From contig OZ076409.1 of the NCBI GenBank assembly GCA_964187785.1, positions 25,918,001-25,982,000 of the forward strand: a DNA stretch of 64,000 bases. Reading direction: 5' to 3'. Origin of the DNA: Amphiscolops sp. MND2022. Lineage: Eukaryota. Of the stretch, positions 13,305 to 56,666 are shown in pieces (positions within the stretch are counted from its first letter, which is position 1; each line of letters starts with the position of its first letter). Under the pieces are notes generated by a model, which saw nothing but the letters and a program-made list of their open reading frames with translations, was not told the DNA's origin and did no database searches. The position numbers were made by a program, and so were the translations under genes.

Positions 13305-13311
13305 TAGATTG

Positions 13312-13323: not shown

Positions 13324-13531
13324 TGTTAACTCGGAGAAGATAGAGTAAGAAGAGTGAATTAAAAGTAATACAAATCAACACAAAGTAATGATCGTTATCA
13401 TATGAACTGTTGTCTATCTGTATCATAGAGTTCAACTTCAACTAATGTTCATACTGTAAGGCTCTTCATCGTAGACACTGGCAGGTACTATGAACTAATT
13501 AGTTCGTCTTTTTAGTGACGTCTACTTCTCA
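13324..13531 (-). repeat. 5' LTR of element B
   Basis: Identical copy of 7616-7823, followed on plus by TSD CTCTC. Confidence 0.97.
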
Positions 13532-32532: not shown

Positions 32533-33135
32533 TTATTGGGGATTGTCGTAAGCACGAGGGTTCGTGCTTGTGAATCCGTCTTTGAGGCGGTCATTGGCCT
32601 GCTTACTCTTAGAATTATTCCTAGGTTCTAAGTTTTGCAGCACTTCGGAATATCCTTCTGGTCTCTCGGCCGGAACGTTCCATCTCTCTTTGGTCAACTG
32701 TCCAGACCCGGCCATAACTGCATTTTGGATTTGAGGCAAAATTTGACTACTGATCGCTTCATTTATTGCCCTTTGAATCTGAACACTGACGCTGTTCATC
32801 ATTTCATCCATCTCTCGAGATATACGGGAATTTAACTCGCTCGACAGTCTATTGATCTCAACACTTGAACTCTCCCTGATTGAATTTTGGCCTAATTCGG
32901 TATTTGGGCTAGGTCCATTATTTCCTGGGTTTGGGAACTCATTCTCATTCTCATCTTCAAGTTCATCTTCAAATAAGCTTTCTGGCCTACCGGCCTGATT
33001 ACTATTCATACTTTCACTTCTCTCATTTCTATCAAAGTGGTTTCCTCCGAGCATAATATCCAAATTCTCAATGTCTGATAGCATTTCTGCTTCTCTAGAT
33101 TTCCTTGCTTTCTTCTGTTTCCTAGTAGTAGGCAT
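32533..33135 (-). CDS. LTR-encoded copy of the Gag N-terminus reading out into flanking DNA (200 aa)
   Basis: Same as the first 197 aa of the 45629-47350 Gag; ends NPQ* in the TSD/flank. Expression is unknown. Confidence 0.5.
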   Translation of the reverse strand: MPTTRKQKKARKSREAEMLSDIENLDIMLGGNHFDRNERSESMNSNQAGRPESLFEDELEDENENEFPNPGNNGPSPNTELGQNSIRESSSVEINRLSSELNSRISREMDEMMNSVSVQIQRAINEAISSQILPQIQNAVMAGSGQLTKERWNVPAERPEGYSEVLQNLEPRNNSKSKQANDRLKDGFTSTNPRAYDNPQ

Positions 33136-33240
33136 TTAGAAAGAAAGTCCAAGGTTAATATTGAATTAGTTCGGAAAACTGGTAATATCAATGAACTGAA
33201 CGTTATGAAAAGAAAGCAAATTGTGTCCCCTCAGAAGGGG

Positions 33241-33283
<43 letters not shown>

Positions 33284-34307
33284 CCTGAGGCATGACACTC
33301 ACATTTTCCACATATTATTGAAATGTTTACATATTCTAAAGGATCGTGAGATTTTACGAGGATTGAAAAATAGCTATTGCATCAAAGTGATTCAGGAATT
33401 TAGGGTCGGAAGAATTCCTGAGGAATGCACTCAATTACATACTCATGATGGCTTCAAAGTACGGGGGACGGTTTAGTCCGCATTCCCGTAACAATTAACA
33501 TCAAGGCAAATACATGTTCAGACACTTCAAAGTAATATTTGTGTCAACAGGTATGTGAGATATCTAAGGCACGTGCCTGCACACGCAGGCTAATTCATCA
33601 GGTAGCAACTCTAATTATATGCACTAATAAAAGGTGAGCGCGGCCCAATTCGGCCATTTGACAAAGGTACCAGCCAATTAAAGTGACCGGTTTAGCCCGC
33701 TGGACTAGTATTTAGAGTTTTATGACTGGTGGTCACAACTACATCAATTGGGTTTAAATAGCCCCATTAGCGCCTTCTAAATACAAATATAATCCTACAT
33801 GACTTTAAATAACATGCATACTCAAATTAAACAATTACATAAGCTAATAGTTGGAATGGCCTAATCCGGCCATTTACCTTTGGTTCGCTTACAAAATAAA
33901 GTATAGCGTCAAGTGGCCGTATACGGCCAAACAAATATGACAGTATAATGCACAGCAGGATAGAGCGTTCTGATTGGCTAATGAAATGAGCTCAAGTGAC
34001 GTCTCCGGAATTGGAGTTTTGTTCACTTGAACTCGTTTCCTTTAAGCTTTACACTTGCCTTTATTACATTACGTCACTGCTAAACAATTCATCATATAAA
34101 CATAATCATCACCGTTTGAATTCTAACACGGGTATTAATCAGACTAATATTCAATCCGAATACATAATGAATGTAATAAAACAACAGTGAGTTTTACTGA
34201 AAGTTTTGAATAATTCTCCTAAAATGTGGGTAGAGTGCCTGGTACGGCTTCTTGTTCGTTAGTAGTCGTTGTGATTCGTGTCCCATCGCAAGCGGCAGCC
34301 TGCGACA
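32544..34307 (-). repeat. 3' LTR of element C (1764 bp)
   Basis: Matches 46759-48498 except for about six substitutions seen by eye and (TA)19 vs (TA)7. Confidence 0.97.
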
Positions 34308-35010
34308 CTGCGGGTGCTAGGAAAAGAAGACTTCCGGCATGTAGACCATTTTCGTAGGCTTCTCTCCTCAAGTCCGTTATGTATGCCGGTTCATTGCGCG
34401 GTGTTGATCTACTCATGTACCAATTCACCTTCTCTTGTTTAATTTCGTCCACTGATCTTCCACAGACCATACATCCACGGCCCAACTGTTTACTAAGATC
34501 CGAATACGGCTGTACTTGTTGGATGTGGTAAGATGCGTGGAAGCTGGTGCTAACTGGCTGTTCCATGAGCTCGTCTTGGGACGGCCCTCTCTCATGTTCG
34601 GGCGGAGACAACGGCGATTCCAATACTGGTAGAATTGTGTTGCAAAGTTCTATCCGGGTTCTTTCTGCCTTTCTCATCGGCACATACAGGAGTTTCTCGT
34701 CAAAGTGTTTGAATCCCAATTTCGGAGTCGAAGGTGGCCACATTTGAAGATTACTCGGTCCAGCTGCTGATTCTGTAGCCTGCTCCTCCACAGTCATCTT
34801 GCGACCTGCGATTAAAATTGGGCTTGACTTGACTTCCCTCTCGATTCTCTCTATGATAGCCTCGGTGTCCGTGGACCAATCGGAATCCCATGAGGTAGAT
34901 GAGGTGCCTTCCTCCTCGTCACTCGATAGGTAGATGACCGAATTTACGGAGGCTTCTGAGTCCGATTCTTCTAAGTCGAAAAGCTTTCTTGCTAAGTTAA
35001 ATTTAGCCAT
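34219..35010 (-). CDS. Accessory ORF of element C (263 aa from first ATG), unknown function; C-terminus encoded in the LTR
   Basis: Uninterrupted ORF; acidic VIYLSSDEEE motif; HASYH...CMVC; the last 89 nt lie inside the 3' LTR. No signal peptide/TM pattern of env. Confidence 0.7.
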   Translation of the reverse strand: MAKFNLARKLFDLEESDSEASVNSVIYLSSDEEEGTSSTSWDSDWSTDTEAIIERIEREVKSSPILIAGRKMTVEEQATESAAGPSNLQMWPPSTPKLGFKHFDEKLLYVPMRKAERTRIELCNTILPVLESPLSPPEHERGPSQDELMEQPVSTSFHASYHIQQVQPYSDLSKQLGRGCMVCGRSVDEIKQEKVNWYMSRSTPRNEPAYITDLRREAYENGLHAGSLLFLAPAVSQAAACDGTRITTTTNEQEAVPGTLPTF

Positions 35011-35896
35011 TATTGTCTTTTTTTGCAATTTTGTTGATTCGCAGAGCGACTTGTTGCTTGCAGGGTTCAAAGTTGAATAAGTTTGTCAAAATTTTCTTCA
35101 GGCCAATTCAGGCTATTTTCCCGGAGTCCCATTTCGGCGGGAGAGACCATGGCCAATCGCCCTGATCCGTCGTAAACTTTCTAGAATGGAATTTCTCAGC
35201 GGCTTATTTATCCTTTGAAATTCGGAATGAAACCCCCCTTTCTCACTCTCTCAAGTGAGTATGCGAAGAGGTGTTAAGTTGACAACAACAAATAATTCCA
35301 CTTCAAGTGGGTAATCAACATCAAGCTTGATAGCAATTAACGGCACTTGTCGGATGAAACTCACTGAAATGGCTTCAGCCAATCGAATTTGAGTTTCGAT
35401 AAATTTGAAAATGAATAATAAAGATGGCAGAAAATAATAATTTTGAATAACTAAAATGGCGAAAATCTAACTAAGGTAACTAGGAAAACTGAACAAAACG
35501 GCAACATAAATTGGGGTAAACGGCCATAATCGGCCACTAATTGTAACAAGGTTGTAAATAGCGAGATACGTCCTGTACATTTCATTGGCAGACTCCGTGT
35601 ACAGATTTAAATGTGTAGATAATCAAATAATATTAGTCTGGTAAATCTTCAACCACGAACTCCAACTTTCCAATTCCTTTATTCATCTTTAATTCCATTC
35701 GAATTCTATTTATATATCAATTGTTTCTCTTACTGGGAATCTCCTAGCTGGTATTCGTCTTCCCTTTGTCTCTAACTCTGCTGTCGATCCCCTCTCTGCA
35801 GCACTAGGGCCCCTAACTTCGGTCCACCCACGGCCATTTCCCTCAGCTTCTTTCGCCCGACGAGAGCATTTACTGAACGAGTAACATTACGGCAAC

Positions 35897-38800
35897 ATGT
35901 CTTCCAATCCAGGTTGGTTTGATTTTCTCTTTCTTTCAAACAAGCTTAGCTTGATCAAGGCTAAACATTGTTCACATGACGCTCCCTGTTTCCATCAGTC
36001 AGACACGTGAAAATACGTTTCATTCAATTTTCAATACACTTCCGGAAGATTTCTAACGCGGCAAAATGGACTCTTTCCAAGGAAGCATACCGCTAAATTT
36101 TATCTCTTTCTATTTAGATAATCAGACTTCTGAGATTGAGATTACATCAAACCCTGCAGGATTACCACAGACAATTCCCAGTGAAAGTGTTACCCAGAAC
36201 GCGGCAGATATTGCCAGGACCGTAACTTCCCCTCAGAGCGTCGAAAGTGAAGTGGACGTCAATGCTTATGCGGAGGCCAAAATGCATGAGATGGAGATTG
36301 AGCAAGCTCAAACGCAGCAACAACCACTCACTGGTAGTTCCAACACGGCGACGTCTGTTGCTGCGACTTCCGCTGGAGCCCAAACTCTTGATTGCATCGT
36401 CCCAGTGCGGTCTAGTACCCCAATACCAGTAGACGCAGCTGGTACTTCCCAAGCTAGCCTGAACACATTAGAATCAGGCCTAAAAGTCATGGATCGTCCT
36501 TTGAGCCAATTGCCTGAACTTATCCCAGCAACCCAAATGGAAGCCACTGCTACATTGTTAGGGAGAGCACCAGATGACGAAGATTGTGAATCCTCCGTGT
36601 ATGAGGTCCCCGTGCTACCCACACATGAACACAAAGTCCGGTTTCTGACCGACTTGAGCGAAGCTGAGAAAACTGCTGGAGAGACGAGTAGCGTTGGTTG
36701 TCCTTCCCTTTACGGGGGTATCCCCGGGTTGTCCGAATCTGGAGATGAAACTAACGACCCCGCTGATACAACTGTCCTCAGTCAACACCAGTCCAACCCA
36801 GTTACATCTACTTCCCGAAGTCATGACTTCCAACCTCCTGAACTCTCTGGAAGAGCACGCGCCATATTGAAAACTTACTTTGAAGAGACAAATGCCTTCA
36901 GGTTCCCGCCGGGACAAACAGCAGTTGTCTTCACAGAGTCCCAAGTATACCACTTGTTGCGAGTCTTGACTGATGAAACGCTCCGGATGTCCCACTCTGC
37001 GATGGAACGAATGATTTTGGATGCCGTCCGGGGCAGTCCTACAATTGTCCCGCCTCGCACTGGCCATTTCAAGTCAAGGACACGAGCACAGACTCCTTTC
37101 AGGCATGTCGATAGTGAATCAAGTGATACTGAGACCGGCGATCTACCAGTTATCGATTCCGAAGGACAAGCTACTACGGACCATGGTGAGTTGGGCGACT
37201 CCTCCTCGTTTGGGGAGAGTGACAGTGCTGGTGAGATGGCCTTGATTTCAGCCACATTCAAGACTCCTATCAGAACAACTGATGTTCAGCCTACTTCATC
37301 CACAGTACTGCCTGGAATCACACAGCCAGGTAGTCAGGAGACTGACCAAAGCAGCCAAGATATCACCCTGTCAGAGGTGAAGGAACAGACGCTACAAACC
37401 AGGGCAAAGATGCAAAGTAGGAAGACTTCAAAGGCCAAAAGATTGCCTCAACGAGGGGTCCCGATGCGAGAGGAGTTCTTTGCCAAAATTGGGTGGACTC
37501 GGTCTTTTATCTCCGGTCCAGCAGATCCGATCCACAATCCCTACATGGTTTGGTGCCATATTTGCAAGAAGAATTTCTCGATCAGGAGCAAGGGAACAAT
37601 GGAGATAGTCAGGCATCATCGGACTGAGAAACACCTCCGAAGGGACCAGAGATGGAGGTACGAACACTTAAAGAGTACTGACCCAATTACGCTCAAGACC
37701 CACCATCGCGTCCGAGGCAGAAATGGGAAAATCCTGAGTAAAATAGAACTGGCCAAAGAGCTCCCCAAATTTATACACATGGAGTTGGTTGACATTGGAG
37801 AGCGTTTTCCTTTTTACGAGGATTTCGTCCGGGGCAGGACTGCTCCCTTAGCTACGCCTGAGTCCCGTGCAAGAACTCAGCTGGTCTTGGTGGCTGACTT
37901 CATCCAGAGCCATGGTGATATTACTGTCCTCCGCAACATGTGGGCCAAAATCAGTTCAGTTACTGACCATCAAGCTTCTCTCTGTGACTTCGATTGGGGA
38001 GAAGAGAGAATGACCGTAAGTATTATTTGCTTCCTCTCTCTTCAGGTCATCTCTTTTCCTAAGTTGTTATATTTTGGTTCGTGTCATTTTTAGGCGGTAT
38101 TCCAACACTTCTTCAACTGTGCCATGAGTGACGTTGCTGACCAGATCTCCTCCCTTCAATGCTTTGCTTTGGAATTCGAGGACCAGGGGCCTAACCGGTT
38201 CATGTCTGTGAAGTTCTGGAAAGGCCAAAGCTTGTGCAGAGTCGTTGTTTGTCGTAGCAGGCTACCTTCCACTGACCTCACTGGAGAATTTGGATCCCTG
38301 GCACGGCTACTATCCGCAGTCTCGACAAAGGCAGACGTGGTGGCCTGCTCTGGATGTCCGGCTGACCTGATCCGGACCATAGACGAGGTCTCCACTTCGG
38401 CGCGAGCTGTCCAAAGTTGTTTCAGATTCTGCCAGCTCAACTTGTCCAAATTGATGCACAAAAAGAACTACAGTGTATTTGGCCACATAGACTTCTTTTC
38501 AGTTTTTCGCGGTTTGATCATCTCTTTGGGCGGATCGACTGATGAGGACTGGGTACGACGCAGTCCCGAACTAGCCAAGGTAAGTGGTCTCTCGCATCTT
38601 ATCGTAGCATAACTGTGTATGCATTATGGTTTTAAACAGCATTTTGCATTTGCATCGTGTTTCCTTTCAGGCTATTTCCAAGAGTGACATAGATCTCCCC
38701 ACATTGCCTGCCTTGTGCCAAGAGCTCATGGACGAGTGGAAGTTTGTGGTTTCATTCCTTACACTACATTCCCCCAAACAGCAGGGCCAAGGAGTCAGGA

Positions 38801-40188
38801 CTAGAGTAAGTAACTCAGCTTGGGTTCCGCCCTTCTCCCTTAGGTGGGAGACGTTATAATTTCGTCGTGAATTTTGTTGCAGGTTCAGAGCTTTGAGTGG
38901 TCGCTCATCTGCGATGAGTTCTTCCTGGTGAAGCTGGAATTCTTCTATCACCTTATTAGTGATTGTTAGTTTATTACGCTAGGCTAGGGTTTTCCCTTTA
39001 GACTAATACGTCTAAGTTTTCTGCGTTTTAGACAACTCCAGTTTCTCTTCTAACTTACAGAGGCGACGAGATTCTTCCTTCTATCTTTGTGGGGAAGTTG
39101 CCCGTTATGTCTACAGACTCTGCTTTAGATGTTATACTGCGGACACCATCCCTCTTGAGAGCTCGTGGTTTCTACTCCTAAATTTCCAAACTAGTGGGAG
39201 AACGTTTCTGTCAGCTGACGAATTCCTCACCCGACTGAATATGAAAAACAAAGTAGCCAGGGCCAGTAAGCAAAAGTCAGAGGGTGTTCATTCTGGGAAG
39301 AAAACTGACAGGTCTGCAGTACAGAAGACCGCTGAGTCCATCAAGAATGATTTCGTCCAGGATTGTCAAAACTTCCTCCAATTCTTGATAGGGGGCGTTC
39401 TTCATCAGGCTGGTCTCTGCTCAAATCTTGTTCGGGGTCTTGCCGCTTTCGACCCGTATATCATGGTGAAAAGGCCCACCGAAGTAGCGCTTCGTCACTT
39501 TGACCTGTTATACCGGACTTTTCAGCTCAGGTCTTGGGTCAGTTCGGCAAATGAGTCTGCCTGCCGCGATGAGTACGTGGAGCTGTTGGACCACCTCAAA
39601 GCTTCTTCTCCGCTTTCGTTTGATGTCAGTCAAGGTTCACCGGACCTTATTGATTTCTTCATCAATCTCGACTTTATGCAAGAACATAGCAGACTGTTGT
39701 ATCTGTTCAAGTTAAGTTGTTTGTGCGTTACGTCTGAGAGCCCTCAATACCCGATGGTAACCATTGGAACTATCAGCACATCAGGCTATCTGAACAGACT
39801 CACAGATGTGGTCTTGCCTGCCCAGAGTTATCTGTCTGGTGTTCCGGACTCCACTGCCTTTTGCACTAGTGACTCTAGTTTGGCCAAATTCTCTGTCCTC
39901 TCTGCCTCTTTCGGTGAAACTGCCTCGTCTAGTTCATACGACCCCTGGACTTTCGTTGACGAGTTTGGCAGGAACAAAATTTACAAGACTCTTCTTGCAT
40001 CATATCGTTCTGCTCTTTCCGGATTAGGCGAAGGGAGCCTTGATGAGACAGCATCCTCCAGCGTTGGAGATATGCCTGCTGTGGTCCCGCCCAGCAGCCG
40101 TAAACGGAGACGTATGGAGAAGAGTAGATCTTGTTCGAGAGCCTCATCCGTCGACAAAGAGTCTCCCGTTGGTTGTTCTAAGGACTAA
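35897..40188 (+). CDS. Six-exon antisense gene of element C, predicted 1257 aa; BED-type zinc finger plus hAT-transposase-like body
   Basis: Exons 35897-35912, 36118-38015, 38094-38579, 38671-38805, 38883-38964, 39032-40188. All introns are GT-AG with compatible phases (1,0,0,0,1); total 3774 nt with no internal stop. Finger VWCHICKKNFSIRSKGTMEIVRHHRTEKH at ~37548-37633. Confidence 0.85.
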
Positions 40189-40426
40189 TTGTACATATGT
40201 ATTTATGTACTTACAAACTGTAAACTTTGTTAATTTTCTGTTTTGTTGTCTTTTGTATCTCCGTTTGTTGTAATCCCTCTGTATTTATTTACCTGAAAGG
40301 GGTTCCTCAAGTGTCCCATTATTTATTCAAGAAACTTATTGCATGGGACTGGAAAAATTAAAAATGAGAAGATAGAAGAAAAGAAATAGGTCCAGGGCTT
40401 GTCTCCTGGCCAGAATTCAATCTTTT

Positions 40427-43400
40427 CTAGTATCTAAAGTCTTCTGAGTAGTTTGGGTTAGGGTTAGGCCTGAGATTATATTTTCCTCCTCTAGGGCTCA
40501 GACTTTCATTTCTAGCATCGTTTTCGGATATTTCGGGCACGATAATATCATCCCCCCTTTTCGGAGAATTTTGTGCGTCATTTTCATTCGTCAAATCTCT
40601 TTCTGAGAGAATTTCGTCATTTTTCGGTCTTTTGTCCAGATTCGGCAAAATTTGTTCTTGAGTTTTGGGGTAAATGGCCGGATTCGGCCAATCAGATTTG
40701 CTGTTGCTAGCCGGTTCACTAGCGTCATTTTCTGTTGTGACGTCATGATTTAATCTTTCATTCCGGCTTCGCGCCGCGTGGTCAGCGTAGTTTGTTTCGT
40801 CTCTCGTGATTATGTAATCCACTTCATTCTCGTCTACGTCACTGTGACTCGGTTCTGCCGCAAGCGGTTGTTCGTCATTGGGTAAGCTGGTCGGAATAGG
40901 ATCATGTCCTCGTGTAATAAGCTGCTCGCCAAAGTCGGTTTCCCATGTGATTATATATAAGTCATCTTGCGGAATAACAATTTCTTCGTCAGGCTGTAGC
41001 TGCTGTTCTTGGAAATTGTCCTCAAGAGGCTGATTAGGGACAAACTTTTTAAGGCGAATTCGATGCAGTATTTGAGTTTTGTTTGTGTTGATTCGTCGTA
41101 CTATATAATTTTCGTTGGGTAAAACCTTTTGGATTATAAATGGTCCAACCCAGCGATAATCGCGGAATGGAATCTTTGATCCTTGGTGATCCGCTTTCGG
41201 CTGTAAGACAAAACAGAATTCATTCTCCTTCAATGGAGCAGCTTTCGCTTTGCGGTCATAATATTCCTTGTATTTGATATATGACTGCATAATATTTTGC
41301 TTCGTTTTGTCTATTAGGGTTTTCGTCCTGTTCTGGATTTCTTCAGCAAATTCGGTTGTAGGGCTGATCTTTTCGTTTGGATTATTTCCAAGCTTATGAT
41401 CCAGGATATTGTAGGGAATTCGGCCATGGAATACTCTCGTTGGTTCACAGCCGATGCTGGCATGGTAGCTTGTATTATGATTCAGCACTGCTAATGGCAA
41501 GTTTTTATGCCATTGTCGGCGGTATTCCCCACATGCCATTTTGAGATTTGTCTTTAATGAGGCATGGGTCCGCTCCAATTTCCCAATTGTTTGCGGGTGT
41601 TTCGTCGTCGCGCATTTGAGTGTAATTCCCAAAATTTGCGTAACCTCCGCGATAATTGTAGAAGTAAATGCGGTACCTTTATCAGTGATAAGCGTTGTTG
41701 GCAAGTACGCATGTTTTGTCATGATATCAATGAGCGCTTTTGCTACATTGATCGCTGATGCGTCCGTAAGAGGGTAAGCAAACAAATATCTAGAAAATAC
41801 ATCGATTGCCGTTAGGACGTTTTCGTATCCTCCACTTGGGGGAAGATTCGGCAGTAAGTCAATCTGCATGGCGTCTTCAGGTCCAAGGTCCCATTCGGGC
41901 AAATTGAGCAGTTCAGGTGTGATCGTTGCATTAGGGACTCTCTTGTTTCTGGCACATTGTTCACACCCTTCTACCCACTTTTTGACGTGTTTAGCCATGC
42001 TAGGGTAGTAATATCTCTGTCTGATTTCCTGCAGCATTTTTGAAATTCCGGGGTGTTTATGCGCTGTCCCGTGAAGGGATTGAAGCAATTCCCGGAGTAA
42101 ATGTTGCGGGAGTAAAATCTGATGGTATTTCACATTCCCTGTCTCATCAAAATATTGCCTTGTCAGGATTTCGTCTTTTAGGGCAATTCGTTCCATATTG
42201 TTTGCATAATGTCTGTATCGGGCGTCCTGGTGTAGTATGTTCTCTGAGTAATCTTCATGAAGGAGCTTTGCCTTCAGCTGCTGTAATACTGCATCTTTGG
42301 ACTGCTCGATAATGATCTGGTTCGTTTTCCTTAGACGGACTTCGATATCTGGTTGTTGTTTTACCAGATTTGTAGACAGAGTTTGTATTGTGACAGTGGG
42401 CTCTTCGATCACTGGATTTGTCCTGATTGCTTCCTTTCTAGCGCAGTACTGTTCCTCTGTCTCATCGTCATCGTTTGTGTAGAATATTTGTTCCTCTTGG
42501 GATACCCTTGAGGATTGGACATTGATTTCTATTGGTAAGGTTTGCACATCTTCCCGAATTTTCATGACCAATTTGTCCTTCGGGTCTGCCTCCAATCGGG
42601 ACAGATAATCTGCGGCTGTATTTTGTGCCCCGGGATATGCGCTATGACAAAATTAAACTGAATCACATAATCACACGCATTCCAGAGTGCTGGGGGTATA
42701 ATTTTCGTCTGGAAAAATCTTGTTACAGCCTTATTGTCAGTAAGGATTATGACCGGTTTGGGCGCACCCCAGAATATATGCCCAAATTCTTTGAATGCAA
42801 AATAAATTGCAAGGAATTCCTTGGCATAAATTGACATTTTGATCTGTGCTGGGGTGAAAGTTTTTGATCCGTACGCAACTGGTGCATACGATTTTCTGAG
42901 TGACGTAAATTTCTGGCTTGGGTCGTCTTCGATTAGGACCGCGTACCCGGCTGCACCAAAACTTGCATCAGTCATTAGTGCTATTTGTTTGTTCGGAATG
43001 GGTTGTTGTAGGGCCAGGTCGCAACATTTGTCTAGTGCTCTATTGATTTCTTCGAATTGTTGGACTAATTCTTTCGATACTAGGACCTTTTCGTCGCTTT
43101 TGAGCATCTTGTAGAATGGAGCAAGGCGTTCGGAGAGTCTTGGGACATAATTCCTGTAATAGTTTAGGAATCCCAAGTAGCGCTGTAAAGCCTTTTTCGA
43201 CTTCGGGAATTTGGTCTTTTTCAGAAAGTTTTGCACATTCTGTTTCTGGGGTTTGACGCCTTGTGGGGTAATAGTCCGTCCGAGAAAATCGATTTCTTTT
43301 GCACCGAAGTGACATTTGTGCATTGTTAACTTAAGGCCTGCTTCCTGAATGCATTTGAATGTAGCTCTCAGGTTCATCATGAGGTGGTCAACATCATTGG

Positions 43401-45186
43401 CTGCGATGCCGATATCGTCCACATACTGGGCACACTGATCTGCTTTGATGACTTTGTCGAGGTATTCCCTCATGAAACTTGAGAATGCGGATAGTGACCG
43501 GCTAAGGCCTTGTGCCAAACGTCTGTAGGCAAATGTGCGACTGGCAAAATTGAAAGCTAACATTTCGATTGAGCGTTGGTCGGCCATTGGTAGGCAGTGG
43601 TATGCCTGCGAACAGTCTAATTTACAGAACAGTTTTTTGCCTGCCAAGTGTTGGGCAGCATCAACCAAGGTGCTAACAGGGTGATTATTGTTGATATAAT
43701 CATCCGAGATGAGGTTGTTGATTTTTCTCAAGTCAACCAAAAGTCGTAGCTTCCCATTTGGTTTCTTTTGGGCGAATATTGGGCTTGCATACTTTGAGAA
43801 CGGTAGTGTGGTTATTATGCCATATTTGTGCAACATGGCTAATTCGACTAGGATGTCCTCCTTCAGATTGATAGGAGCTGGAAGGCTTTGACTATAGGCT
43901 GGGGAATCGTCCTTAGGTGTCAGTTTCACTTTGAATTCCTCGTTCATGCCTATATCAAATCGGTGTCGTGCAAAGATGTCATGGAATTCCACTAACAATT
44001 CCTCAATTTTCTCCTTCTCTTCAGGAGTAAGGGTGGAATCTTTCCAGTCAAAGTTTTCTAAGAATTTTGCACGCGATTCTGCATCTGTGGTGGGGTCGAG
44101 TGTCTCCAGGTCCTGTAAGGCCTGTAACTCGCGTAGGATTCGTTTTTGTATAGGTGTGTGTTCCTCAGGATTTCCAGGGTTTTCTGGAGTTGGGAACCAA
44201 TAATTTTCGGAGTTTTGTGGATTTCTATTGGTTTTGATGAGACTGCTGACATAATGGGCCGCTTGCTCCTGGTCATTCTGCAAAAGGTGCCAGGTTGATG
44301 CCGGGTCTACCGGTTTGACATACTTCATCTGTTCTGGCGTCATGACAGAGAAATTGGCAATATGTAGTCCCTTTTTGAGTTTATAAGGGTGGTCTGTGAA
44401 GTTGCTCACTGGTATCGATATATTGCCGTCATTCAGAGTGACCAAGGCTGGGCAGAATGTGATGTCACCTTCTTCATGTAGGAGGTCGCTCGGTTGCAAA
44501 ATCCCAGTGACAGCATTTTCAGGGTATAGTAAGGAATTAGTCCGGATTAGGACTCTGTCATTTGGCGGGATTGTTATTTCAGCAGGGTTGAGGATTGGTT
44601 CAAGTACGTTTGAGTACTTATGGTCAGCTGTTTTGAGCTGCATTGAAAAGAACGGGAAATTCAAAATTCCTTGTCTCATGTCCAGTACTGTATGATTTCG
44701 TTGAAGGAACATTAGGCCGATAATCGGACCTGTCAGGTGTTCCATGACTATAAAAATCTCATGAAACTCAATGTCACCAACTTCAAATTTGAGCTCTATG
44801 GTACTCTTAGGAGTTTCCAATTGCCCATTAGCAACCATGATTTGGAAATTTGGAGGCGGACCTTCCCGGATAACAGATTGTGGAGATAGGAGTCGAATTT
44901 TCCGGAGGTCCATCTCAGGAATTGCACTGGACACCGCTCCAGTGTCGATAAGTCCGTCTATGGTCAACTCCCCAAAGTCCATGGGGAAGTACAACATGCG
45001 TTTTTTGCATTTGAGATTGATGTTGGTTGACAATGGTACACAGTCTGGTTCACCGTCCCTGGTGATTAAGATATTCTGGAATTGCTTCTCGTCTAATAGT
45101 GATTGTGGTATGGGTTGAGCAACGTCTTCATGGGTCTCGGTCCCTAATGGGTTTGGGAACACTGGATGGTTGGTGCCATCATTCAT
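40427..45186 (-). CDS. pol: pol of element C (PR, dUTPase-like relic, RT, RNase H, integrase) with a 1-nt frameshift near 42630
   Basis: LIDTGA; QYVDD; TDAS/AKE/TDN; integrase H..H..CEQC, IDLL, TDKG, LERTH. Adding one G to a G-run restores AHIPGAQNTAADYLSR, joining ORFs 42562-45186 and 40427-42595. The pol frame extends up to ~45640 with one TGA near 45425. Confidence 0.93.
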
Positions 45187-45628
45187 TTGCCAGTTTTCAA
45201 CTAGTGCTCTGGTCTTTTTATTGTGGGTGATTGGAGGGTTCTCGTGGACCGTTCTATTATAGTGCTCGATGTCGTCTAAGACATATTGAAATTGTAGTTG
45301 TTCCTGGTTGTAGATTTCTGTGTCCCAATAGGGGTCTCTGCCGTAGTCTGGATCTATGTAGGTAGGGTTGTAATTGTCAACCAGGGGAATAGGCCTGAAT
45401 CGGGTAGTGAGGTAGTAGTATAATCAGGGTCCCAAACAGGAATTGGTTTTTGGAACAAATGTGTGTTGTTATATGTGATGGTTATTGCTTTATCCATCTG
45501 TTGCTGCCAGACAACAGAGGGATAGCCCATCAATTGCTGATTGTAATGGTGGAAAGTTTGCGTTGGAGGGTCCGATCTGATGTATTGTCGGACAGATATT
45601 AGTTCGTTATATTGGAGTCGTGGCGAAG

Positions 45629-47350
45629 TTAGTTTTTTGACTCATCATTAGGATATGAGGATTGGGAGCCCGATGATGTCGGTTTGGTCTGGGGTTTCTG
45701 AGCCTTTGGATTGGGCTTATTCTCAGTTGAGTCCTCAGGTCTAGTGCGTTTGGGTTTAAGATGTGCACCAGCACCTTGCCAACATCGTTCTTCCGGGTGG
45801 TTCTTTTTGCCACAAGTGCCACACTCCGGGTATGTTTTCTTCTGAGTTGACTTGCCTTGTTGAGCATCTTTCTCTTTTTTCTTTTTCAGTTTTTCGCAGT
45901 CTTTGACCATGTGGCCTTTTTCCTTGCAATAATTGCAAGTAATGTCTGACATTTGCCCAGTGGACAGAGGAGTTTTAGATTTTGTACTCGAGGAGGTCAT
46001 TGTGGCCATTGGTAGGTCATCTGATTCCTCAAGGGCGTTGAGTTCCAACTCTCTCTCCAAATGAGCAACAATTTCATCATATGAGCCATTTTCTAGTCTG
46101 GCCATGTTGACAGACCGCTTCAACTTAGGTGGCAATTTTGCATAGAGCAAGCTGTCAATCATTCTCTGTGCATGATCACCAAACGCCTTCTCGGCTCCCT
46201 GGTTTAATTCTTCGAGAAAATCAGGCAGCTTCATCGTATTGGGATCGAAGACTAGGTGGTGCCATTTATGTTTGGCAGTCGCCTGTGACTCGGGTTTGAC
46301 GTATTTCCGTCTAAAGATGACTAGTACGTCCTCTAGAGTTTGTCGGTTGCTTGAGCTGATATTTCTGAACGTCTGAAGAGCATTCTTCCTCAATAAAGAG
46401 TGGAAGTGATTGATCTTCATTTGCTCAGTCATTTCTGGCTGCATCTTGATCATAGTGTGAAATAGGTCTTCGAACAGCTCGAATTTCTCACTTTTGCCGT
46501 CGAATGTCATGGTATTTGAGTTGACTGGGCGTATGGTGAGTTGTTGGGCTGTTGGTCTATTTTGCATTGTGGTCAATACGTCTGCCAGTCGGGTGATGGG
46601 GTCGGAGTCAGCAGCCTTAGCGATTCTCTCTTGTGCTGGGATCGTCGTGTCGAGCAGGGGAAGGTCATCATTTGATCTGTTGAGATGACTGGTGGATGGT
46701 ATTCGTCCCGTGAGAAACTCAGGAACTTCGATTGGAGATTCGTTTTCTCCTGTCACCATGTCGTAAGCACGAGGGTTCGTGCTTGTGAATCCGTCTTTCA
46801 GGCGGTCATTGGCCTGCTTACTCTTAGAATTATTCCTAGGTTCTAAGTTTTGCAGCACTTCGGAATATCCTTCTGGTCTCTCGGCCGGAACGTTCCATCT
46901 CTCTTTGGTCAACTGTCCAGACCCGGCCATAACTGCATTTTGGATTTGAGGCAAAATTTGACTACTGATCGCTTCATTTATTGCCCTTTGAATCTGAACA
47001 CTGACGCTGTTCATCATTTCATCCATCTCTCGAGATATACGGGAATTTAACTCGCTCGACAGTCTATTGATCTCAACACTTGAACTCTCCCTGATTGAAT
47101 TTTGGCCTAATTCGGTATTTGGGCTAGGTCCATTATTTCCTGGGTTTGGGAACTCATTCTCATTCTCATCTTCAAGTTCATCTTCAAATAAGCTTTCTGG
47201 CCTACCGGCCTGATTACTATTCATACTTTCACTTCTCTCATTTCTATCAAAGTGGTTTCCTCCGAGCATAATATCCAAATTCTCAATGTCTGATAGCATT
47301 TCTGCTTCTCTAGATTTCCTTGCTTTCTTCTGTTTCCTAGTAGTAGGCAT
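45629..47350 (-). CDS. gag: gag of element C (573 aa), intact, starting inside the 5' LTR
   Basis: Two CCHC knuckles CNYCKEKGHMVKDC and CGTCGKKNHPEERC; capsid-like TFDGKSEKFELFEDLF region; the ATG is 592 nt inside the LTR. Confidence 0.93.
   Translation of the reverse strand: MPTTRKQKKARKSREAEMLSDIENLDIMLGGNHFDRNERSESMNSNQAGRPESLFEDELEDENENEFPNPGNNGPSPNTELGQNSIRESSSVEINRLSSELNSRISREMDEMMNSVSVQIQRAINEAISSQILPQIQNAVMAGSGQLTKERWNVPAERPEGYSEVLQNLEPRNNSKSKQANDRLKDGFTSTNPRAYDMVTGENESPIEVPEFLTGRIPSTSHLNRSNDDLPLLDTTIPAQERIAKAADSDPITRLADVLTTMQNRPTAQQLTIRPVNSNTMTFDGKSEKFELFEDLFHTMIKMQPEMTEQMKINHFHSLLRKNALQTFRNISSSNRQTLEDVLVIFRRKYVKPESQATAKHKWHHLVFDPNTMKLPDFLEELNQGAEKAFGDHAQRMIDSLLYAKLPPKLKRSVNMARLENGSYDEIVAHLERELELNALEESDDLPMATMTSSSTKSKTPLSTGQMSDITCNYCKEKGHMVKDCEKLKKKKEKDAQQGKSTQKKTYPECGTCGKKNHPEERCWQGAGAHLKPKRTRPEDSTENKPNPKAQKPQTKPTSSGSQSSYPNDESKN
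45632..45638 (-). other. Putative -1 ribosomal frameshift heptamer A AAA AAC
   Basis: Immediately precedes the gag stop TAA; the pol frame is -1 relative to gag. Confidence 0.7.
46747..46758 (-). promoter_or_regulatory. Primer-binding site TGGTGACAGGAG of element C
   Basis: Abuts the 5' LTR end ...ACGACA; shared with element A. Confidence 0.8.
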
Positions 47351-48498
47351 TTAGAACGAAAGTCCAAGGTTAATATTGAATTAGTTCGGAAAACTGGTAA
47401 TATCAATGAACTGAACGTTATGAAAAGAAAGCAAATTGTGTCCCCTCAGAAGGGGGGTATATATATATATACCTCCTGAGGCATGACACTCACATTTTCC
47501 ACATATTATTGAAATGTTTACATATTCTAAAGGATCGTGAGATTTTACGAGGATTGAAAAATAGCTATTGCATCAAAGTGATTCAGGAATTTAGGGTCGG
47601 ACGAATTCCTGAGGAATGCACTCAATTACATACTCATGATGGCTTCAAAGTACGGGGGACGGTTTAGTCCGCATTCCCGTAACAATTAACATCAAGGCAA
47701 ATACATGTTCAGACACTTCAAAGTAATATTTGTGTCAACAGGTATGTGAGATATCTAAGGCACGTGCCTGCACACGCAGGCTAATTCATCAGGTAGCAAC
47801 TCTAATTATATGCACTAATAAAAGGTGAGCGCGGCCCAATTCGGCCATTTGACAAAGGTACCAGCCAATTAAAGTGACCGGTTTAGCCCGCTGGACTAGT
47901 ATTTAGAGTTTTATGACCGGTGGTCACAACTACATCAATTGGGTTTAAATAGCCCCATTAGCGCCTTCTAAATACAAATATAATCCTACATGACTTTAAA
48001 TAACATGCATACTCAAATTAAACAATTACATAAGCTAATAGTTGGAATGGCCTAATCCGGCCATTTACCTTTGGTTCGCTTACAAAATAAAGTATAGCGT
48101 CAAGTGGCTGTATACGGCCAAACAAATATGACAGTATAATGCACAGCAGGATAGAGCGTTCTGATTGGCTAATGAAATGAGCTCAAGTGACGTCTCCGGA
48201 ATTGGAGTTTTGTTCACTTGAACTCGTTTCCTTTAAGCTTTACATTTGCCTTTATTACATTACGTCACTGCTAAACAATTCATCATATAAACATAATCAT
48301 CACCGTTTGAATTCTAACACGGGTATTAATCAGACTAATATTCAATCCGAATACATAATGAATGTAATAAAACAACAGTGAGTTTTACTGAAAGTTTTGA
48401 ATAATTCTCCTAAAATGTGGGTAGAGTGCCTGGTACGGCTTCTTGTTCGTTAGTAGTCGTTGTGATTCGTGTCCCATCGCAAGCGGCAGCCTGCGACA
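46759..48498 (-). repeat. 5' LTR of element C (1740 bp)
   Basis: Direct repeat of 32544-34307, followed on plus by TSD GGGAT. Confidence 0.97.
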
Positions 48499-48624
48499 GG
48501 GATTTAAATGAAGTTCTGCTAAAATATCTTATACCCTGAAATTTACCGTTCGGTGTTCCCGCATCCACTTTTTAGAAGCTATTCAGACGGTGGTTCTGAG
48601 GAGTACAGCAAGCAAGATACCCGT

Positions 48625-51600
48625 TATTTATAGCAGTACCATACCAGATTAAGGACAGAGAGCGTCTTACAAGACTGTGCCCCCTCCCCGGGATCGGTAC
48701 CCTGCGGAGGAAAAATGGGTTGGTACGTAGAGAGAGACTGTCAGTCCTGGACTCCGTACTAGTGCCTCACTCTCGTTAACATGCAAGCGTCTGACGGTTG
48801 TCGTTACAAGAGTGTAGAGTGATTTCAAAAAAAATAAAGGCTGCATAATTTTGAACGGATTAATATTAAACACCAGCTGATTTGTGAAATATTATTTTTT
48901 CCCTGCTAGATATGTATGGGCGATAATTCGATCCTGGTTTGAATCATAGATTTCATATTTGTGATAGACGATGAATGAAAATTTGAATGAAATATAAAAT
49001 AACAAAAAAGCTCTCACCATTGTCGCCGTAACCATTAGAGTTGGAGGAACACATGTTATGGGTATTTGCCCGGGACAGGCGCCCATGACCATGAGCTCAT
49101 TTTGCCTCCTTCGGGTAAACACTGTCCCGTCAGAGGAGGATTCCGCTTCTTTTGAAGCGCTCGCCGGCCTGATCCAGTCTTTAATTGCTGTCAGTAGCGC
49201 GAATTACGCGTTGTCTTCGAAACTATCACTTAGACAGCCTTTAAAAACGTTCCAAAAGGAAATTATGCTAAATTTTTTTATTCAGTGTGACTTGAGGAGT
49301 AATATCTAAAATTGCGGAATAAGATCTAAAGTTGTCAAAGTAGCCATAAACTTACAACGATGTACAGCAATCTACAGCAATCGCGTCCACAACAGCGATT
49401 TGGCAACATCCACATTCAGCTCGCAAGCTGGGGCACCACGGGCACAGAATTGTGAATTAGACGAAAAGACTCATTTTTACGGTTTTTGCTACTTAAGGTA
49501 GCATACTGCTGAAATGAAGGTTAGCACCTTCGAAAGAGTCTAATTTCAGAGGTTTTTGCAGTCTCTGGTGTCTGTTCGGGCGGGTTGTCTTATGTTTTTT
49601 CTCGATCTTGCTCTTTGTAGTCGAAGTACCTGCCAATTTCGTTGAAACAGCTAAAAGAGAAATCATATGCTCAGTGCCATGTTAAACATCGAATTAGAAT
49701 TTTTGACAAATTTCTGAACATGTCACAATTCCAAAATCGGTTGATTTTGCTGTACCAGAGGGTCCCGTTACATCACTCCCCGGGCCTTAGGCATGACGTC
49801 CCTGTCATGCGGAGAAGCTGGCATTGAAAACATCTCCACATCATCTTTGCAATCCACTGGGATCTCAAACTGGTGATGTTGCAAAGTTCCAATGGCACTG
49901 TCATCTTTCGCTGATTGGGCAACCTTGAAGTCTTGCTTCTTGCAATCCAGTGAACGTGCATCGTCCACGAACTGTTGAAACAGAGCTAGCTCGAGAGCTA
50001 GAAAACAAGTACTCAAAAATGCACCTTCAAACAAATCATAATCTTTAATCTATATATCAATCTAAGAGCATCAATTAATTGGCAAAGTTTTCTACACTAA
50101 ATTTGGATAGGATCGCAATAGCACTGATGTTTATGTGGTTTAAGAAGTTTTTTGAAGCCCTGGGGCTCTCTAGAGGTTTCTCTCAAAAACTTCTTTCCAC
50201 GCCAGTAAAAATTCAGTTTGCAGAACAGTTAAAATTTGTTTTCAGTATAACTTCTTTTCAGCGGAAAGACCACTGTTTAAAAAAAACAGGTAGTTTCTGA
50301 TATTTTTTTGTTCAAAGTTTGGCTAAACTTGGGCAGCATTCACTGATGTGCAGCTCCATACCAAAACAAAAATCAGTAGCATCCGTTGAGGAGAGTATGA
50401 AAAGCGATTTGCCAACTGACTGCATGTGAGATTTATCACTGAGACAAAAATAGACAAGATTCTGTAATTGAAAATTTCGGGGCTAATGAGCTCCAATAAA
50501 CAAAATATTCCGTAGAAAAGCCACTGAATCAACGGAAAACTGACATTAAAACTCCAAGGAGTATAACTATAGAGATAACGAAACTAAAGAAGAAACTATT
50601 TTAAAAAGCATCTGGCCAAAGTTGCACTAACGAGGACTTTCATTTGCTTTTTTGCTTTTGTTGTCAGGCCTCACTGATAGCCTTGAAAGTGTTATATCAA
50701 ATAATTTCTACGAGGAACAAAAAACAAAGTTTTTTTATATCAAGCTGTGAGTGTACATCAGAATCGATTGAAAGTAATGTGCGATCAGGATTTCATTACT
50801 TTAGATTGTGGCAGATTCCGTGGGTGGTCAGCGTGGAAAGTAGAGAATTAGAGTGTTGTCACTCCATGGGACTCCCCGGACCTTAGTCAACTCCCCGGGC
50901 CTCAATCGAGGCGGATTATGAGGATAGCGAGGAATAGACAAACTTGAATGCCCGACACAGAAATTGCAGAGTGATAAGTTGAGCTTTGACGACACCTCCT
51001 CCCCCTTGAAAAGAAAAGGAGTGTAGCTCGGGTTGTGGATGGGTATCATTATTCGATAGCAGCAGGACATGCAAAAAGCATGAAATACCAGGACATCCAA
51101 AAAAAAAGAAAACTGAGGCTGGGTCTGTCTCAAGACTGTGATAGATGTTCGGAGGACGGCCACGCCTAGGTGCATTCGGTCAATGCGACCATGGTAGTAA
51201 GAGGACTGAGCGTGGTGGACTGCCACAGCGACGTCTACGATGAAGCGAAAGCAGAACTTTATGCCATGAGAGTTCACCAGAAGCCCGCGGTGGTCGACCA
51301 CGTCTATGTCCAGTCGGTCGAGATTTGGTAGAACCACTATGCAACCAATTGATAGAGATTGGCTGGTCCACTTGAATATAATCCTGTAGACCAAGTTGAG
51401 CAGAAGTTGGCTAAATAGAATATTTCAGCAAACTCGGCAGCAACTGCGAAGTGCATAAAAGGGACTTTGTTCCAGGGATATGAGAGTTGCTTACAGAATC
51501 CTGCGACATGGAAATGGAGGGTGAGATTGATATTCGTTCATTTTTCATATCACTTGAGTAGAGGTTGCGCTCGAGCAACCCATTGTCACCGGCGTGATAT

Positions 51601-54600: not shown

Positions 54601-56666
54601 AAAGAAGAAACTATTTAAAAAAGCATCTGGCCAAAGTTGCACTAACGAGGACTTTCATTTGCTTTTTTGCTTTTGTTGTCAGGCCTCACTGATAGCCTTG
54701 AAAGTTTTATATCAAATAATTTCTACGAGGAACAAAAAACAAAGTTTTTATATCAAGCTGTGGGTGTACATCAGAATCGATTGAAAGTAATGTGCGATCA
54801 GGATTTCATTACTTTAGATTGTGGCAGATTCCGTGGGTGGTCAGCGTGGAAAGTAGAGAATTAGAGTGTTGTCACTCCATGGGACTCCCCGGACCTTAGT
54901 CAACTCCCCGGGCCTCAATCGAGGCGGATTATGAGGATAGCGAGGAATAGACAAACTTGAATGCCCGACACAAAAATTGCAGAGTGATAAGTTGAGCTTT
55001 GACGACACCTCCTCCCCCCTTGAAAAGAAAAGGAGTGTAGCTCGGGTTGTGGATAGGCATCATTATTCGATAGCAGCAGGACATGCAAAAAGCATGAAAT
55101 ATCAGGACATCCAATAAAAAAAACTGAGGCTGGGTCTGTCTCAAGACTGTGATAGATGTTCGGAGGACGGCCACGCCTAGGTGCATTCGGTCAATGCGAC
55201 CATGGTAGTAAGAGGACTGAGCGTGGTGGACTGCCACAGCGACGTCTACGATGAAGCGAAAGCAGAACTTTATGCCATGAGAGTTCACCAGAAGCCCGCG
55301 GTGGTCGACCACGTCTATGTCCAGTCGGTCGAGATTTGGTAGAACCACTATGCAACCAATTGATAGAGATTGGCTGGTCCACTTGAATATAATCCTGTAG
55401 ACCAAGTTGAGCAGAAGTTGGCTAAATAGAATATTTCAGCAAACTCGGCAGCAACTGCGAAGTGCATAAAAGGGACTTTGTTCCAGGGATATGAGAGTTG
55501 CTTACAGAATCCTGCGACATGGAAATGGAGGGTGAGATTGATATTCGTTCATTTTTCATATCACTTGAGTAGAGGTTGCGCTCGAGCAACCCATTGTCAC
55601 CGGCGTGATATTTAGGCAACGTGTCAGCAATACCCAAGGTTGTAGTGTCCAAAGATATTGGGTCCACCCCCATGTCTTTTGTTGGCGGTGTCATTGGTTA
55701 TGCTTCAGCGTCGTTTGGAATATTGATAGTGGCACTTCCGAGGTGTACCTGCATATCTGCATTTATCGACTGCATTGTGCTAGCGCTGGAGCTAGCAGTT
55801 TCTCCCTGCGAAGTCCGCTTTGTGCCAACAGGGCTGAAATTTCATCCATCTGCTGCTCCAGGGCCTCTTATTGTTGATCCTGTTTCTGATAAATCTGAAA
55901 ACTGGTTTCATGGAGAGAGAATCCTTTCGACGACGATACTGAACTAGGACTGGAAGTCTTTATGCTCATCTCCGGCTCGGTATTCTGAGTGTTAGATGGT
56001 ATTGAGTCTAGAAAAACGGAGCCAAGTTTGAAACTATCCTCCAAAGGCCAATCTTCCAACTTCAAATCCTCTAACTTCGTCGATCGGTCATGTTCATATA
56101 CCATTTGGGATTCATTTCGAGGTTGAATTTCAAGAAGATCCATTGGTTGAGCTGCACTGATACCCTCTTCCCCTTTAAAAAAGGAACGGAGGCGGTGGAA
56201 GACTTTCCAACGTTGCATTTCAGCTTTAGAGATTCCGATCTGCTTCACTAGAACCACATGTTTATCCAACCTCAGTGTCAGGGTCAAAGTCAAGAGAAGT
56301 TCTAGCTATCACAGCATGCTGAGAACTGTTCATAGCTTTGCACGCTGCTCAGTGGGCTAAAAAATGTTGCTCTCGAGCAACTTCTTGCAGCCAAGTTGGA
56401 TACTGCGCACCAAACAGACAGTCGAGCGGTTTGTTGACTCCTCAACCCGAATTGAGTTTGGGTATTTTGTAATTACCAAAAAAGTTCTCTGCGAATTTGA
56501 CGTGATATTCGGTGCTTCAGCTACTTGATACCACGGAATAACACCAAACAGAGGCACCAGAGTGTTCACAAAGGTTCCACACTCGGGCAAAAAGTTGTCA
56601 ATAGGAGGTTGCTCCTCTCAAAATCTCGTGATTTTGCCTAACTCGGAACACTCAGGGTCTTTCGGA
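48625..56666. repeat. ~4.02-kb tandem duplication (48625-52640 / 52642-56666)
   Basis: Colinear near-identical sequence at offset ~4010-4017 (paired ORFs e.g. 51411/55422), with scattered SNPs and small indels. Confidence 0.97.

Follow-up and report, generated by a model that had tools for sequence, protein, structure and literature searches.

A probable spliced antisense accessory gene in an abundant Ty3/Gypsy retrotransposon family of Amphiscolops

A family of Ty3/Gypsy retrotransposons in the genome of Amphiscolops sp. MND2022 carries a large gene on the strand opposite gag and pol. One copy was analysed in a window of 64,000 nucleotides (contig OZ076409.1, assembly GCA_964187785.1, positions 25,918,001 to 25,982,000, forward strand), and coordinates below are those of the window. 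On balance, this is probably a genuine spliced antisense accessory gene of the family, and its product of about 1255 aa would be a nuclear nucleic-acid-binding factor that acts on the element's cycle. What was observed within this explanation is the gene model, the way the gene is integrated into the element and the selection acting on it. To our knowledge, only a few families of LTR retrotransposons, in plants and fungi, have documented antisense accessory genes, and no function is known for any of them.

The carrier can be recognized as a Ty3/Gypsy element by its LTRs (1764 and 1740 bp, TG...CA), its target-site duplication and the PBS adjoining its 5' LTR. Pfam matches follow the order gag with DUF1759, then gag-asp_proteas, RVT_1, RT_RNaseH, Integrase_H2C2 and rve in pol. 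Its parts are:

32539..32543, no strand: left target-site duplication GGGAT, the same five bases at both element ends
32544..34307, minus strand: 3' LTR (TGTCG...CGACA), 99.6-99.7% identical to 46759-48498
34219..35085, minus strand: extra sense-strand ORF, 288 codons from stop to stop (Met at codon 26), extending into the 3' LTR
40427..42652, minus strand: integrase ORF, convergent with the antisense gene, stop-to-stop gap 238 nt
42562..45423, minus strand: ORF for protease, RT and RNase H, in a different frame from integrase in this copy only
45629..47350, minus strand: gag, 573 aa, two CCHC knuckles and DUF1759, its first 197 codons within the 5' LTR
46759..48498, minus strand: 5' LTR, followed by the PBS-like TGGTGACAGG with TGG at its start
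48499..48503, no strand: right target-site duplication GGGAT, matching the left copy

A first-pass annotation of this sequence had described pol as frameshifted in this copy and the antisense frame as intact. The frameshift was confirmed as a one-base indel where RNase H meets integrase. It is private to the window copy, the junction being open in 6/6 sister copies. The extra sense-strand ORF is also conserved, with 234-332 codons in 11/11 copies (at least 285 in 10/11) and about 60% amino acid identity between subfamilies; a Pfam search with it gave no match. The family as a whole is large, young, recently active and very abundant.

The antisense gene lies on the plus strand of the window and is modelled as follows:

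35897..35912, plus strand: putative exon 1, ATG + 13 nt, phase 1; ATG and CAG/GT border in 13/13 aligned copies
35913..36117, plus strand: putative intron 1, 205 nt, GTTGGT...TTTAG; left unspliced, it would place the protein start at ATG 36066
36118..38015, plus strand: exon 2, with the S/T/E/P-rich N-terminal half, zinc finger and linker
37551..37634, plus strand: zinc finger W-C-x2-C-x17-H-x4-H, the most constrained part
38016..38093, plus strand: intron 2, 78 nt, GTAAGT...TTTTAG, containing an in-frame stop; donor in 21/21 copies
38094..38579, plus strand: exon 3, 162 aa
38580..38670, plus strand: intron 3, 91 nt, GTAAGT...TTTCAG; donor in 21/21
38671..38805, plus strand: exon 4, 45 aa
38806..38882, plus strand: intron 4, 77 nt, GTAAGT...TTGCAG; donor in 20/21
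38883..38958, plus strand: exon 5, 76 nt, phase 1 end; 90% identical between subfamilies
38959..39031, plus strand: intron 5, 73 nt, GTGATT...TTTTAG; supersedes an acceptor at 39060
39032..40188, plus strand: exon 6 including the stop, encoding an all-alpha domain of about 330 aa and a disordered basic tail
40099..40113, plus strand: RKRRR, an NLS-like basic patch (R356 and R358 invariant in 8/8) that may serve nuclear import

The four ORF pieces of the original proposal (36057-38093, 38094-38612, 38608-38859 and 39016-40188) and its two small exons were all located, as were its three GTAAGT donors at 38016, 38580 and 38806. Its stop-free frame of 1257 aa is indeed free of stops. The length is corrected to 1255 aa from ATG 35897, with five introns, or 1267 aa from the alternative start ATG 36066, with four. 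Among the five GT-AG introns claimed, introns 2-4 stand, intron 1 is putative, and acceptor 39060 of intron 5 is replaced by 39031. The TTTAG at 39031 is kept in 12/13 aligned copies and, with the donor GTGATT, sets exon 5 at 38883-38958. Acceptor 39060 (CAG) reads CAT or CAC in 14/14 copies of the second subfamily and was rejected, as was a 45-nt version of exon 5, which is not conserved.

Evidence for splicing is provided by comparing copies. Splice sites are retained or swapped for valid ones (GTGAGT, GTTAGT, GTTAGC), and in the comparison with the second subfamily introns are 67-78% identical, against 76-90% for exons. Database relatives terminate at identical exon borders; intron 2 is read through in proteins P0160 and P0342, and exon 5 is fused with exon 6, with no intron, in P0012 and P0076. 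In 13/13 copies both ATGs are conserved, as is the AG at 36117, and exon 1 with intron 1 (35897-36117) remains a model. Splicing, promoter and start codon of the gene are thus predicted from conservation. The four or five short introns can survive retrotransposition because the genomic RNA of the element is the opposite strand, on which they are never spliced.

Around the predicted start lies a strongly conserved block, and a candidate signal can be found at either end of the gene:

35594..36140, no strand: block with the highest conservation in the sampled part of the element, 92-96% identity between subfamilies
35707..35717, plus strand: TATA-like motif, a candidate promoter signal some 180 nt before ATG 35897
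40357..40362, plus strand: ATTAAA, candidate poly(A) signal 170 nt past the stop

The block likely comprises the promoter, 5' UTR and first exon and intron of the antisense gene. No ATG occurs between the TATA-like motif and ATG 35897, and 35897-36140 stays at about 90% identity or higher even where the subfamilies are 72-77% identical overall. Oddly for an intron, putative intron 1 is conserved better than any other stretch of the region. Folding of 35890-36125 gave no sign of RNA structure (z-scores +0.49 and -0.61), and the k-mers that this stretch has in common with the LTR are not above chance. An Rfam search returned microsatellite look-alikes of miRNAs inside the LTR only, and nothing for the conserved block.

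The first-pass annotation had proposed looking for a dN/dS below 1 and for the cassette at the same site in sister copies. Both are found. Against eight second-subfamily copies, divergence at the three codon positions is 0.14 / 0.09 / 0.40. Over the whole gene, dN/dS is 0.09, across dS>1. The finger region (37467-38015) has the lowest value, 0.02-0.03; exon 3 has 0.06, exons 5-6 have 0.07-0.08 and the N-terminal half has 0.13. By this measure, constraint on the antisense gene matches that on integrase (0.07-0.08). The signal of purifying selection could partly reflect the youth of copies within a subfamily, an explanation that is weakened because the between-subfamily comparisons have dS>1.

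LTR, cassette and integrase are collinear in 20/20 copies at 77-99% identity and in 5/5 at 72-77%. The spliced coding sequence is intact in 12/21 and 2/5 copies, and of 107 exon-6 matches 90 have an open frame. All 26 loci selected by the gene have an adjoining integrase; among 40 matches selected by integrase, at least 18, counting the window's own copy, have an adjoining cassette match, and none was shown to be without one. Element copies that lack the gene could exist. In a diverged lineage exon 6 is 29% identical and a convergent integrase, 63% identical, follows directly downstream. The accessory module thus appears to diversify much faster than pol. Lineages also seem to exchange this module, since copies whose integrases are 88-89% identical have a last exon that is either about 85% or about 56% identical.

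The predicted protein consists of a disordered, S/T/E/P-rich N-terminal half, a C2H2 finger, a middle region, an all-alpha domain and a basic tail. The finger, DQISSLQCFALEFED, LIDFF..HSRLLYLFKLSCLCVTSES and RKRRR named in the first-pass annotation are all present. The searches recognised no domain with an established function, and nucleic-acid binding is suggested by one unclassified zinc finger and the basic tail. Structure prediction for the exon-6 domain (about 330 aa) reached pLDDT 82; an earlier AlphaFold model built from 8 close sequences (pLDDT 34) was discarded. Foldseek searches with the exon-6 model gave best E-values of 0.9 against PDB and 0.096 against BFVD. The family has 488 representatives at E<=1e-3. 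Precomputed Pfam domains were found in 0/120 relatives, and 302 pattern matches in metagenome contigs included no relative. A word-index search for long (fused) exon-6 relatives found none, which is weak evidence. No cluster member that was examined bears a name.

Chance is excluded as the source of the reading frame by the codon-position divergence and by its longest open stretch of 678 codons, where 200 shuffles averaged 120 and never exceeded 248. The gene might instead be a passenger: a DNA transposon or host gene, now a decayed remnant, would ride in the element without a role. Defects in 9/21 and 3/5 copies, about half of those sampled, would fit such a remnant. A passenger would not be expected to show a dN/dS of 0.09 across dS>1 with a fourfold excess of third-position change, conserved splice sites, constraint equal to that on integrase, and an arrangement retained where integrase is only 63% identical; nor is there a TIR or TSD around it. 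This reading is close to refuted. Selection might also act on an antisense RNA, as dsRNA or small RNA that regulates the element, with the ORF incidental. Reviews of plant elements name antisense transcription as a possible regulator (in passages of PMC7264820), and the best-conserved stretch here is noncoding or barely coding. An incidental ORF, however, would not hold 1250 open codons in lineages 72% identical, nor give the 0.14 / 0.09 / 0.40 pattern, and an RNA-level role on its own is very improbable.

The origin of the protein is a separate matter. It had been read as a domesticated hAT transposase kept as an accessory factor. A selected accessory gene of the element is what was found; the defining hAT domains were not. 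The finger spacing C-x2-C-x17-H-x4-H fits BED yet is not diagnostic, and the claimed BED finger has neither a Pfam zf-BED match nor a BED structure at E<=10. The claimed hAT C-terminal domain was likewise not found: Dimer_Tnp_hAT occurs in 0/42 members (the same Pfam model has 150 other matches in this genome), and hhalign against 24 local hAT C-terminal domains gave a probability of 0.1%. A search for an RNase H-like catalytic core with its DDE triad gave no sequence or profile match. The absence of TIR and TSD, noted at the start, was borne out, as 18 of 193,018 boundary pairs have at least 10/12 TIR matches and none of those 18 has at least 6/8 TSD matches. A nested transposon was rejected for want of a TIR and TSD pair; inverted repeats that flank the cassette, AT-rich and with 72-77% complementarity, have no TSD and were set aside. 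The carrier, moreover, is a retroelement. Likeness to hAT and ZBED proteins lies in the layout (a finger, then a long mixed and then all-alpha region), in protein-atlas (language-model) neighbours DUF659, DUF4371 and ZBED1_RNase-like at 0.78-0.83, and in a weak alignment to Hermes. That a hAT transposase with BED finger, RNase H-like core and hAT C-terminal domain was captured, became catalytically dead and was retained, ZBED-style, to bind DNA sequence-specifically, be it as transactivator, anti-silencer or integration tether, is possible but less likely than not. The broader scenario is doubtful: a retrotransposon clade would long ago have captured a hAT-like transposase and made of it a nuclear DNA-binding factor for its own use, antisense and spliced, now a fast-evolving, exchanged module. 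Fast divergence and module exchange are expected of a factor engaged in conflict with host silencing or in the choice of integration sites. If true, one class of mobile element would have domesticated the enzyme of another, a clear case between a retroelement and a DNA transposase.

Among the closest parallels to an antisense accessory gene of this kind are plant genes. The aORF-3R genes of Ty3/Gypsy Tat/Retand elements include maize Grande gene23, rice RIRE2 and Silene Retand ORF4 / TRP28; in the parts of PMC11963269 and PMC7264820 that treat them, they are present in most family copies, account for the long region from pol to the 3' LTR and are suspected of a nuclear or DNA-binding regulatory role; for Grande gene23, a nuclear location and transcription from a promoter of its own are reported. 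The gene described here has the same position and orientation, between pol and the 3' LTR on the opposite strand, and is common to most copies and to diverged lineages rather than to one transduced copy. Layout alone is common to the two; no sequence relation and no match to Transposase_28 or other Pfam families were found. The host genome here measures 1.07 Gb, and DUF1759 in gag suggests that it is probably an animal's. The present gene is also far larger (1255 aa), with 4-5 conserved introns, whereas the word "intron" is absent from the main texts of PMC7264820 and PMC11963269.

In fungi, Boty-like (BcGypsy1) retrotransposons of Botrytis cinerea carry brtn, likewise an additional antisense gene within a Ty3/Gypsy element (Zhao et al. 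2011 Virology 417:248, as cited in PMC8365987). The present gene, for its part, is large and intact, with a C2H2-type finger, and its family is unrelated and very abundant. The antisense genes HBZ (HTLV-1) and ASP (HIV-1) of complex retroviruses are drawn into the comparison in passages of PMC11963269 and PMC7264820, and HBZ is a nuclear regulator encoded antisense at the 3' end of a reverse-transcribing element. There is no homology, and retroviral antisense genes begin in the 3' LTR; unlike HBZ and ASP, the gene here begins inside the element, in a conserved block at a distance of 1.3-1.6 kb from the LTR. HBZ exists in a spliced form.

Under the preferred reading, the ultra-conserved block at 35.6-36.1 kb would probably supply the antisense gene with a promoter of its own. 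A spliced antisense mRNA would be translated into the nuclear nucleic-acid-binding factor of about 1255 aa, which may work in trans, either on how element copies are transcribed or silenced or on a pre-integration step. Lineages losing the gene would then cease spreading.

Extra genes are a route from simple retrotransposons to complex retroviruses. Found here is a multi-exonic, intact antisense gene under selection as strong as that on integrase, in many lineages and in very many copies within one genome. Hundreds of its nameless relatives lie in public assemblies, and gene callers at present break the gene into anonymous ORFs. The case is also tractable: the protein lends itself to expression, localisation and DNA-binding assays, and the fast, modular way in which it evolves compared with pol offers a means to probe regulation, evasion of silencing or target choice.

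A single complete LTR retrotransposon belonging to the Ty3/Gypsy group occupies 32544-48498 on the minus strand. Its LTRs are 99.6-99.7% identical to each other and have the termini TGTCG...CGACA, and a 5-bp duplication, GGGAT, flanks both ends. Between integrase and the 3' LTR lie about 6.1 kb of further sequence. This interval contains an antisense gene (the cassette) on the plus strand, an integral, selected and intron-bearing part of the element.

Features of the element and of its antisense gene
32544-34307, minus strand, LTR
46759-48498, minus strand, LTR
47350 to 45629, minus strand, gag (DUF1759 and two CCHC knuckles)
45423 to 42562, minus strand, protease, RT and RNase H
42652 to 40427, minus strand, integrase
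35897-35912, plus strand, exon 1 (putative)
35913-36117, plus strand, intron 1 (205 nt, putative)
36118-38015, plus strand, exon 2
38016-38093, plus strand, intron 2 (78 nt)
38094-38579, plus strand, exon 3
38580-38670, plus strand, intron 3 (91 nt)
38671-38805, plus strand, exon 4
38806-38882, plus strand, intron 4 (77 nt)
38883-38958, plus strand, exon 5
38959-39031, plus strand, intron 5 (73 nt)
39032-40188, plus strand, exon 6 (stop included)

The gag gene starts 592 nt inside the LTR. Thus, its first 197 codons are found in each LTR (46759-47350 and 32544-33135), and its frame runs through a PBS-like site, TGGTGACAGG. Between subfamilies (groups of element copies in the genome), identity is 83-88% over the gag-coding stretch of the LTR, while the remaining LTR can barely be aligned. 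The LTR also holds a (TA)n microsatellite (33223-33294 and 47440-47470) of unequal length in the two LTRs; sub-threshold Rfam look-alikes of miRNA families there are chance matches. As the first-pass annotation had noted, pol of this copy is frameshifted: a one-base indel, absent from 6/6 sister copies, puts its two pol ORFs in different frames. In the stretch 45354-45885, three different frames are successively open from gag's end (45629) to where the open pol frame begins (45423), which may indicate either a programmed frameshift region or further damage to this copy.

The four plus-strand ORF pieces reported by that annotation are all present, and one junction of its gene model is revised. 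The acceptor it had placed at 39060 reads CAT or CAC in 14/14 copies of the second subfamily and is thus not kept there; a TTTAG acceptor at 39031, with a longer exon 5, is kept across copies. The predicted product has 1255 aa, or 1267 aa if translation starts at the in-frame ATG at 36066 with intron 1 unspliced. Among database relatives of exon 3, alignability ends exactly at both intron borders, with read-through of intron 2 in two of them. Two other database matches have exons 5 and 6 fused without an intron.

The predicted protein has the features first described for it. S, T, E, A and P abound in its N-terminal 467 aa, which include a conserved module some 70 aa long. A W-C-x2-C-x17-H-x4-H finger, a linker, exons 3-5 and exon 6 follow in that order, with RKRRR within the tail of exon 6.

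Evidence that the gene belongs to the element is provided by its copies, which are very many in this genome of 1.07 Gb; first-look candidate counts are 1051 by DNA and 7456-7807 by exon-6 proteins of three lineages. In 20/20 copies chosen by cassette similarity (6 at 97-99% identity, 14 at 77-79%), LTR side, cassette and integrase are collinear with the window, as they are in 5/5 further copies at 72-77%. Starting from integrase instead, at least 18 of the best 40 matches (the window's own copy included) have a cassette or exon-6 match at the expected 240-310 nt. A diverged lineage, whose exon 6 is 29% identical to the window's over 298 aa and is present at 100% identity in the same genome, has a convergent Gypsy integrase directly downstream, 63% identical to the window's. 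A nested DNA transposon would be bounded by a TIR plus TSD; a search of the cassette's boundaries found none, in agreement with the earlier reading.

The gene is also under purifying selection. Compared with 8 second-subfamily copies, codon positions 1, 2 and 3 differ by 0.14, 0.09 and 0.40, and identity is 67-78% in introns and 76-90% in exons. With all pairs at dS near or above 1, dN/dS between subfamilies (Nei-Gojobori) is 0.09 for the whole gene, 0.02-0.03 for the zinc-finger part, 0.06-0.07 for exon 3, 0.07-0.08 for exons 5-6 and 0.13 for the N-terminal half; integrase gives 0.07-0.08 in the same pairs. The spliced frame is intact in 12/21 copies, plus 2/5 further ones, including copies only 75% and 72.5% identical, and 90/107 exon-6 matches in the genome have an open frame.

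The first-pass annotation derived the gene from a hAT transposase, a DNA-transposon protein, domesticated by the element. The integral, selected gene stands, but its hAT origin has yet to be established, and it does not warrant classification as a hAT member. The zf-BED and Dimer_Tnp_hAT domains proposed for it were sought with Pfam, which gave no family for any gene piece at E<=10 and no domain in its relatives (0/42, 0/55 and 0/120). PDB profile searches and BLASTP gave no match. Pfam readily recognises hAT sequences from the same genome (four full ORFs and the C-terminal domains of another 20); hhalign of the antisense-family profiles against this set gave probabilities of 0.4, 0.8, 3.5 and 0.1%. 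Weakly in favour of hAT ancestry, the neighbours in a protein atlas are the families expected of a hAT protein, in the expected order, with scores and shared-feature counts within reach of chance: Dimer_Tnp_hAT clusters for exon 6 (23/30 matches, 0.92), and DUF659, DUF4371, ZBED1_RNase-like and zf-BED for the finger with exon 3 (0.78-0.83). We regard hAT ancestry as less likely than not.

With the exon-6 profile, a full HMMER scan gave 488 representatives at 50% clustering, of which 283 reach E<=1e-10. Each of the 488 is an exon-sized anonymous ORF, and the cluster members read include no named protein. An AlphaFold2 model of exon 6, built from an alignment of 150 relatives, is all-alpha (pLDDT 82, pTM 0.68) with residues 338-384 disordered; fold searches against PDB and BFVD gave no clear match.

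The layout itself is already known. According to PMC7264820 and PMC11963269, plant Tat/Retand elements have additional antisense ORFs in the interval from pol to the 3' LTR, as does Botrytis Boty with brtn (PMC8365987); the window element shares this arrangement. What is new is the protein family, its size, the conserved multi-intron structure, the abundance and the probable animal host. Searches of the open-access literature turned up no account of this antisense-protein family or of a retrotransposon that carries a hAT-like gene.

Downstream of the antisense gene is an extra ORF in sense orientation (34219-35085, minus strand), the last 89 nt of which overlap the 3' LTR. It has 288 codons from stop to stop, with Met at codon 26. 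Its product is acidic and serine-rich at the N-terminus and conserved in the C-terminal third, and Pfam gives no match for it. The ORF is open in 11/11 aligned copies (285 or more codons in 10/11), with about 60% protein identity between subfamilies; therefore, the element may hold two accessory genes.

Directly adjoining the element is a tandem duplication (48625-56470; period about 4.0 kb, 96-100% identity), with a third partial copy about 7 kb further on (59962-60487). About 6 overlapping copies, the inner ones 98% identical, make up a satellite-like array at 14915-16077 whose period is 173 bp. Two further Gypsy-type pol regions lie on the minus strand: 43-2760, which is cut by the window start and akin to the studied element (73% over 300 nt), and 8102-13325, between two identical 211-nt repeats (7616-7826 and 13324-13534) 5.7 kb apart.

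Conservation in the sampled element is highest in a block at 35.6-36.1 kb, 92-96% identical between subfamilies. Within it, 35897-36140 (putative exon 1, all of putative intron 1 and the second ATG) keeps about 90% identity or more in subfamilies 72-77% identical overall, while conservation is lowest in the other introns. This segment has no RNA-structure signal, Rfam match or motif in common with the LTR; it may serve as a promoter, an enhancer or a binding site. A TATA-like motif is found at 35707-35717. The antisense gene would be transcribed from the conserved block, and its transcript would receive its poly(A) tail after ATTAAA at 40357. The introns are able to persist since the genomic RNA is complementary to the gene's coding strand, an established principle on which antisense-intron retrotransposition reporters are based.

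The finger, the basic tail and an analogy to Grande gene23 (a plant antisense ORF) and HBZ (the HTLV-1 antisense protein) suggest that the product is nuclear and binds nucleic acid, as a regulator or a targeting factor. Over short distances the gene evolves at a pol-like rate, but over long ones far faster (29% versus 63% identity). In four copies the cassette matches the window's at 99% identity but the integrase at only 91-92%, and copies with 88-89% identical integrase carry last exons of two lineages, with about 85% or about 56% protein identity to the window's. Such patterns suggest that the elements are mosaics, with module exchange or recombination between lineages. Speculatively, fast evolution and module exchange would fit a factor that encounters the defences or the chromatin of the host.
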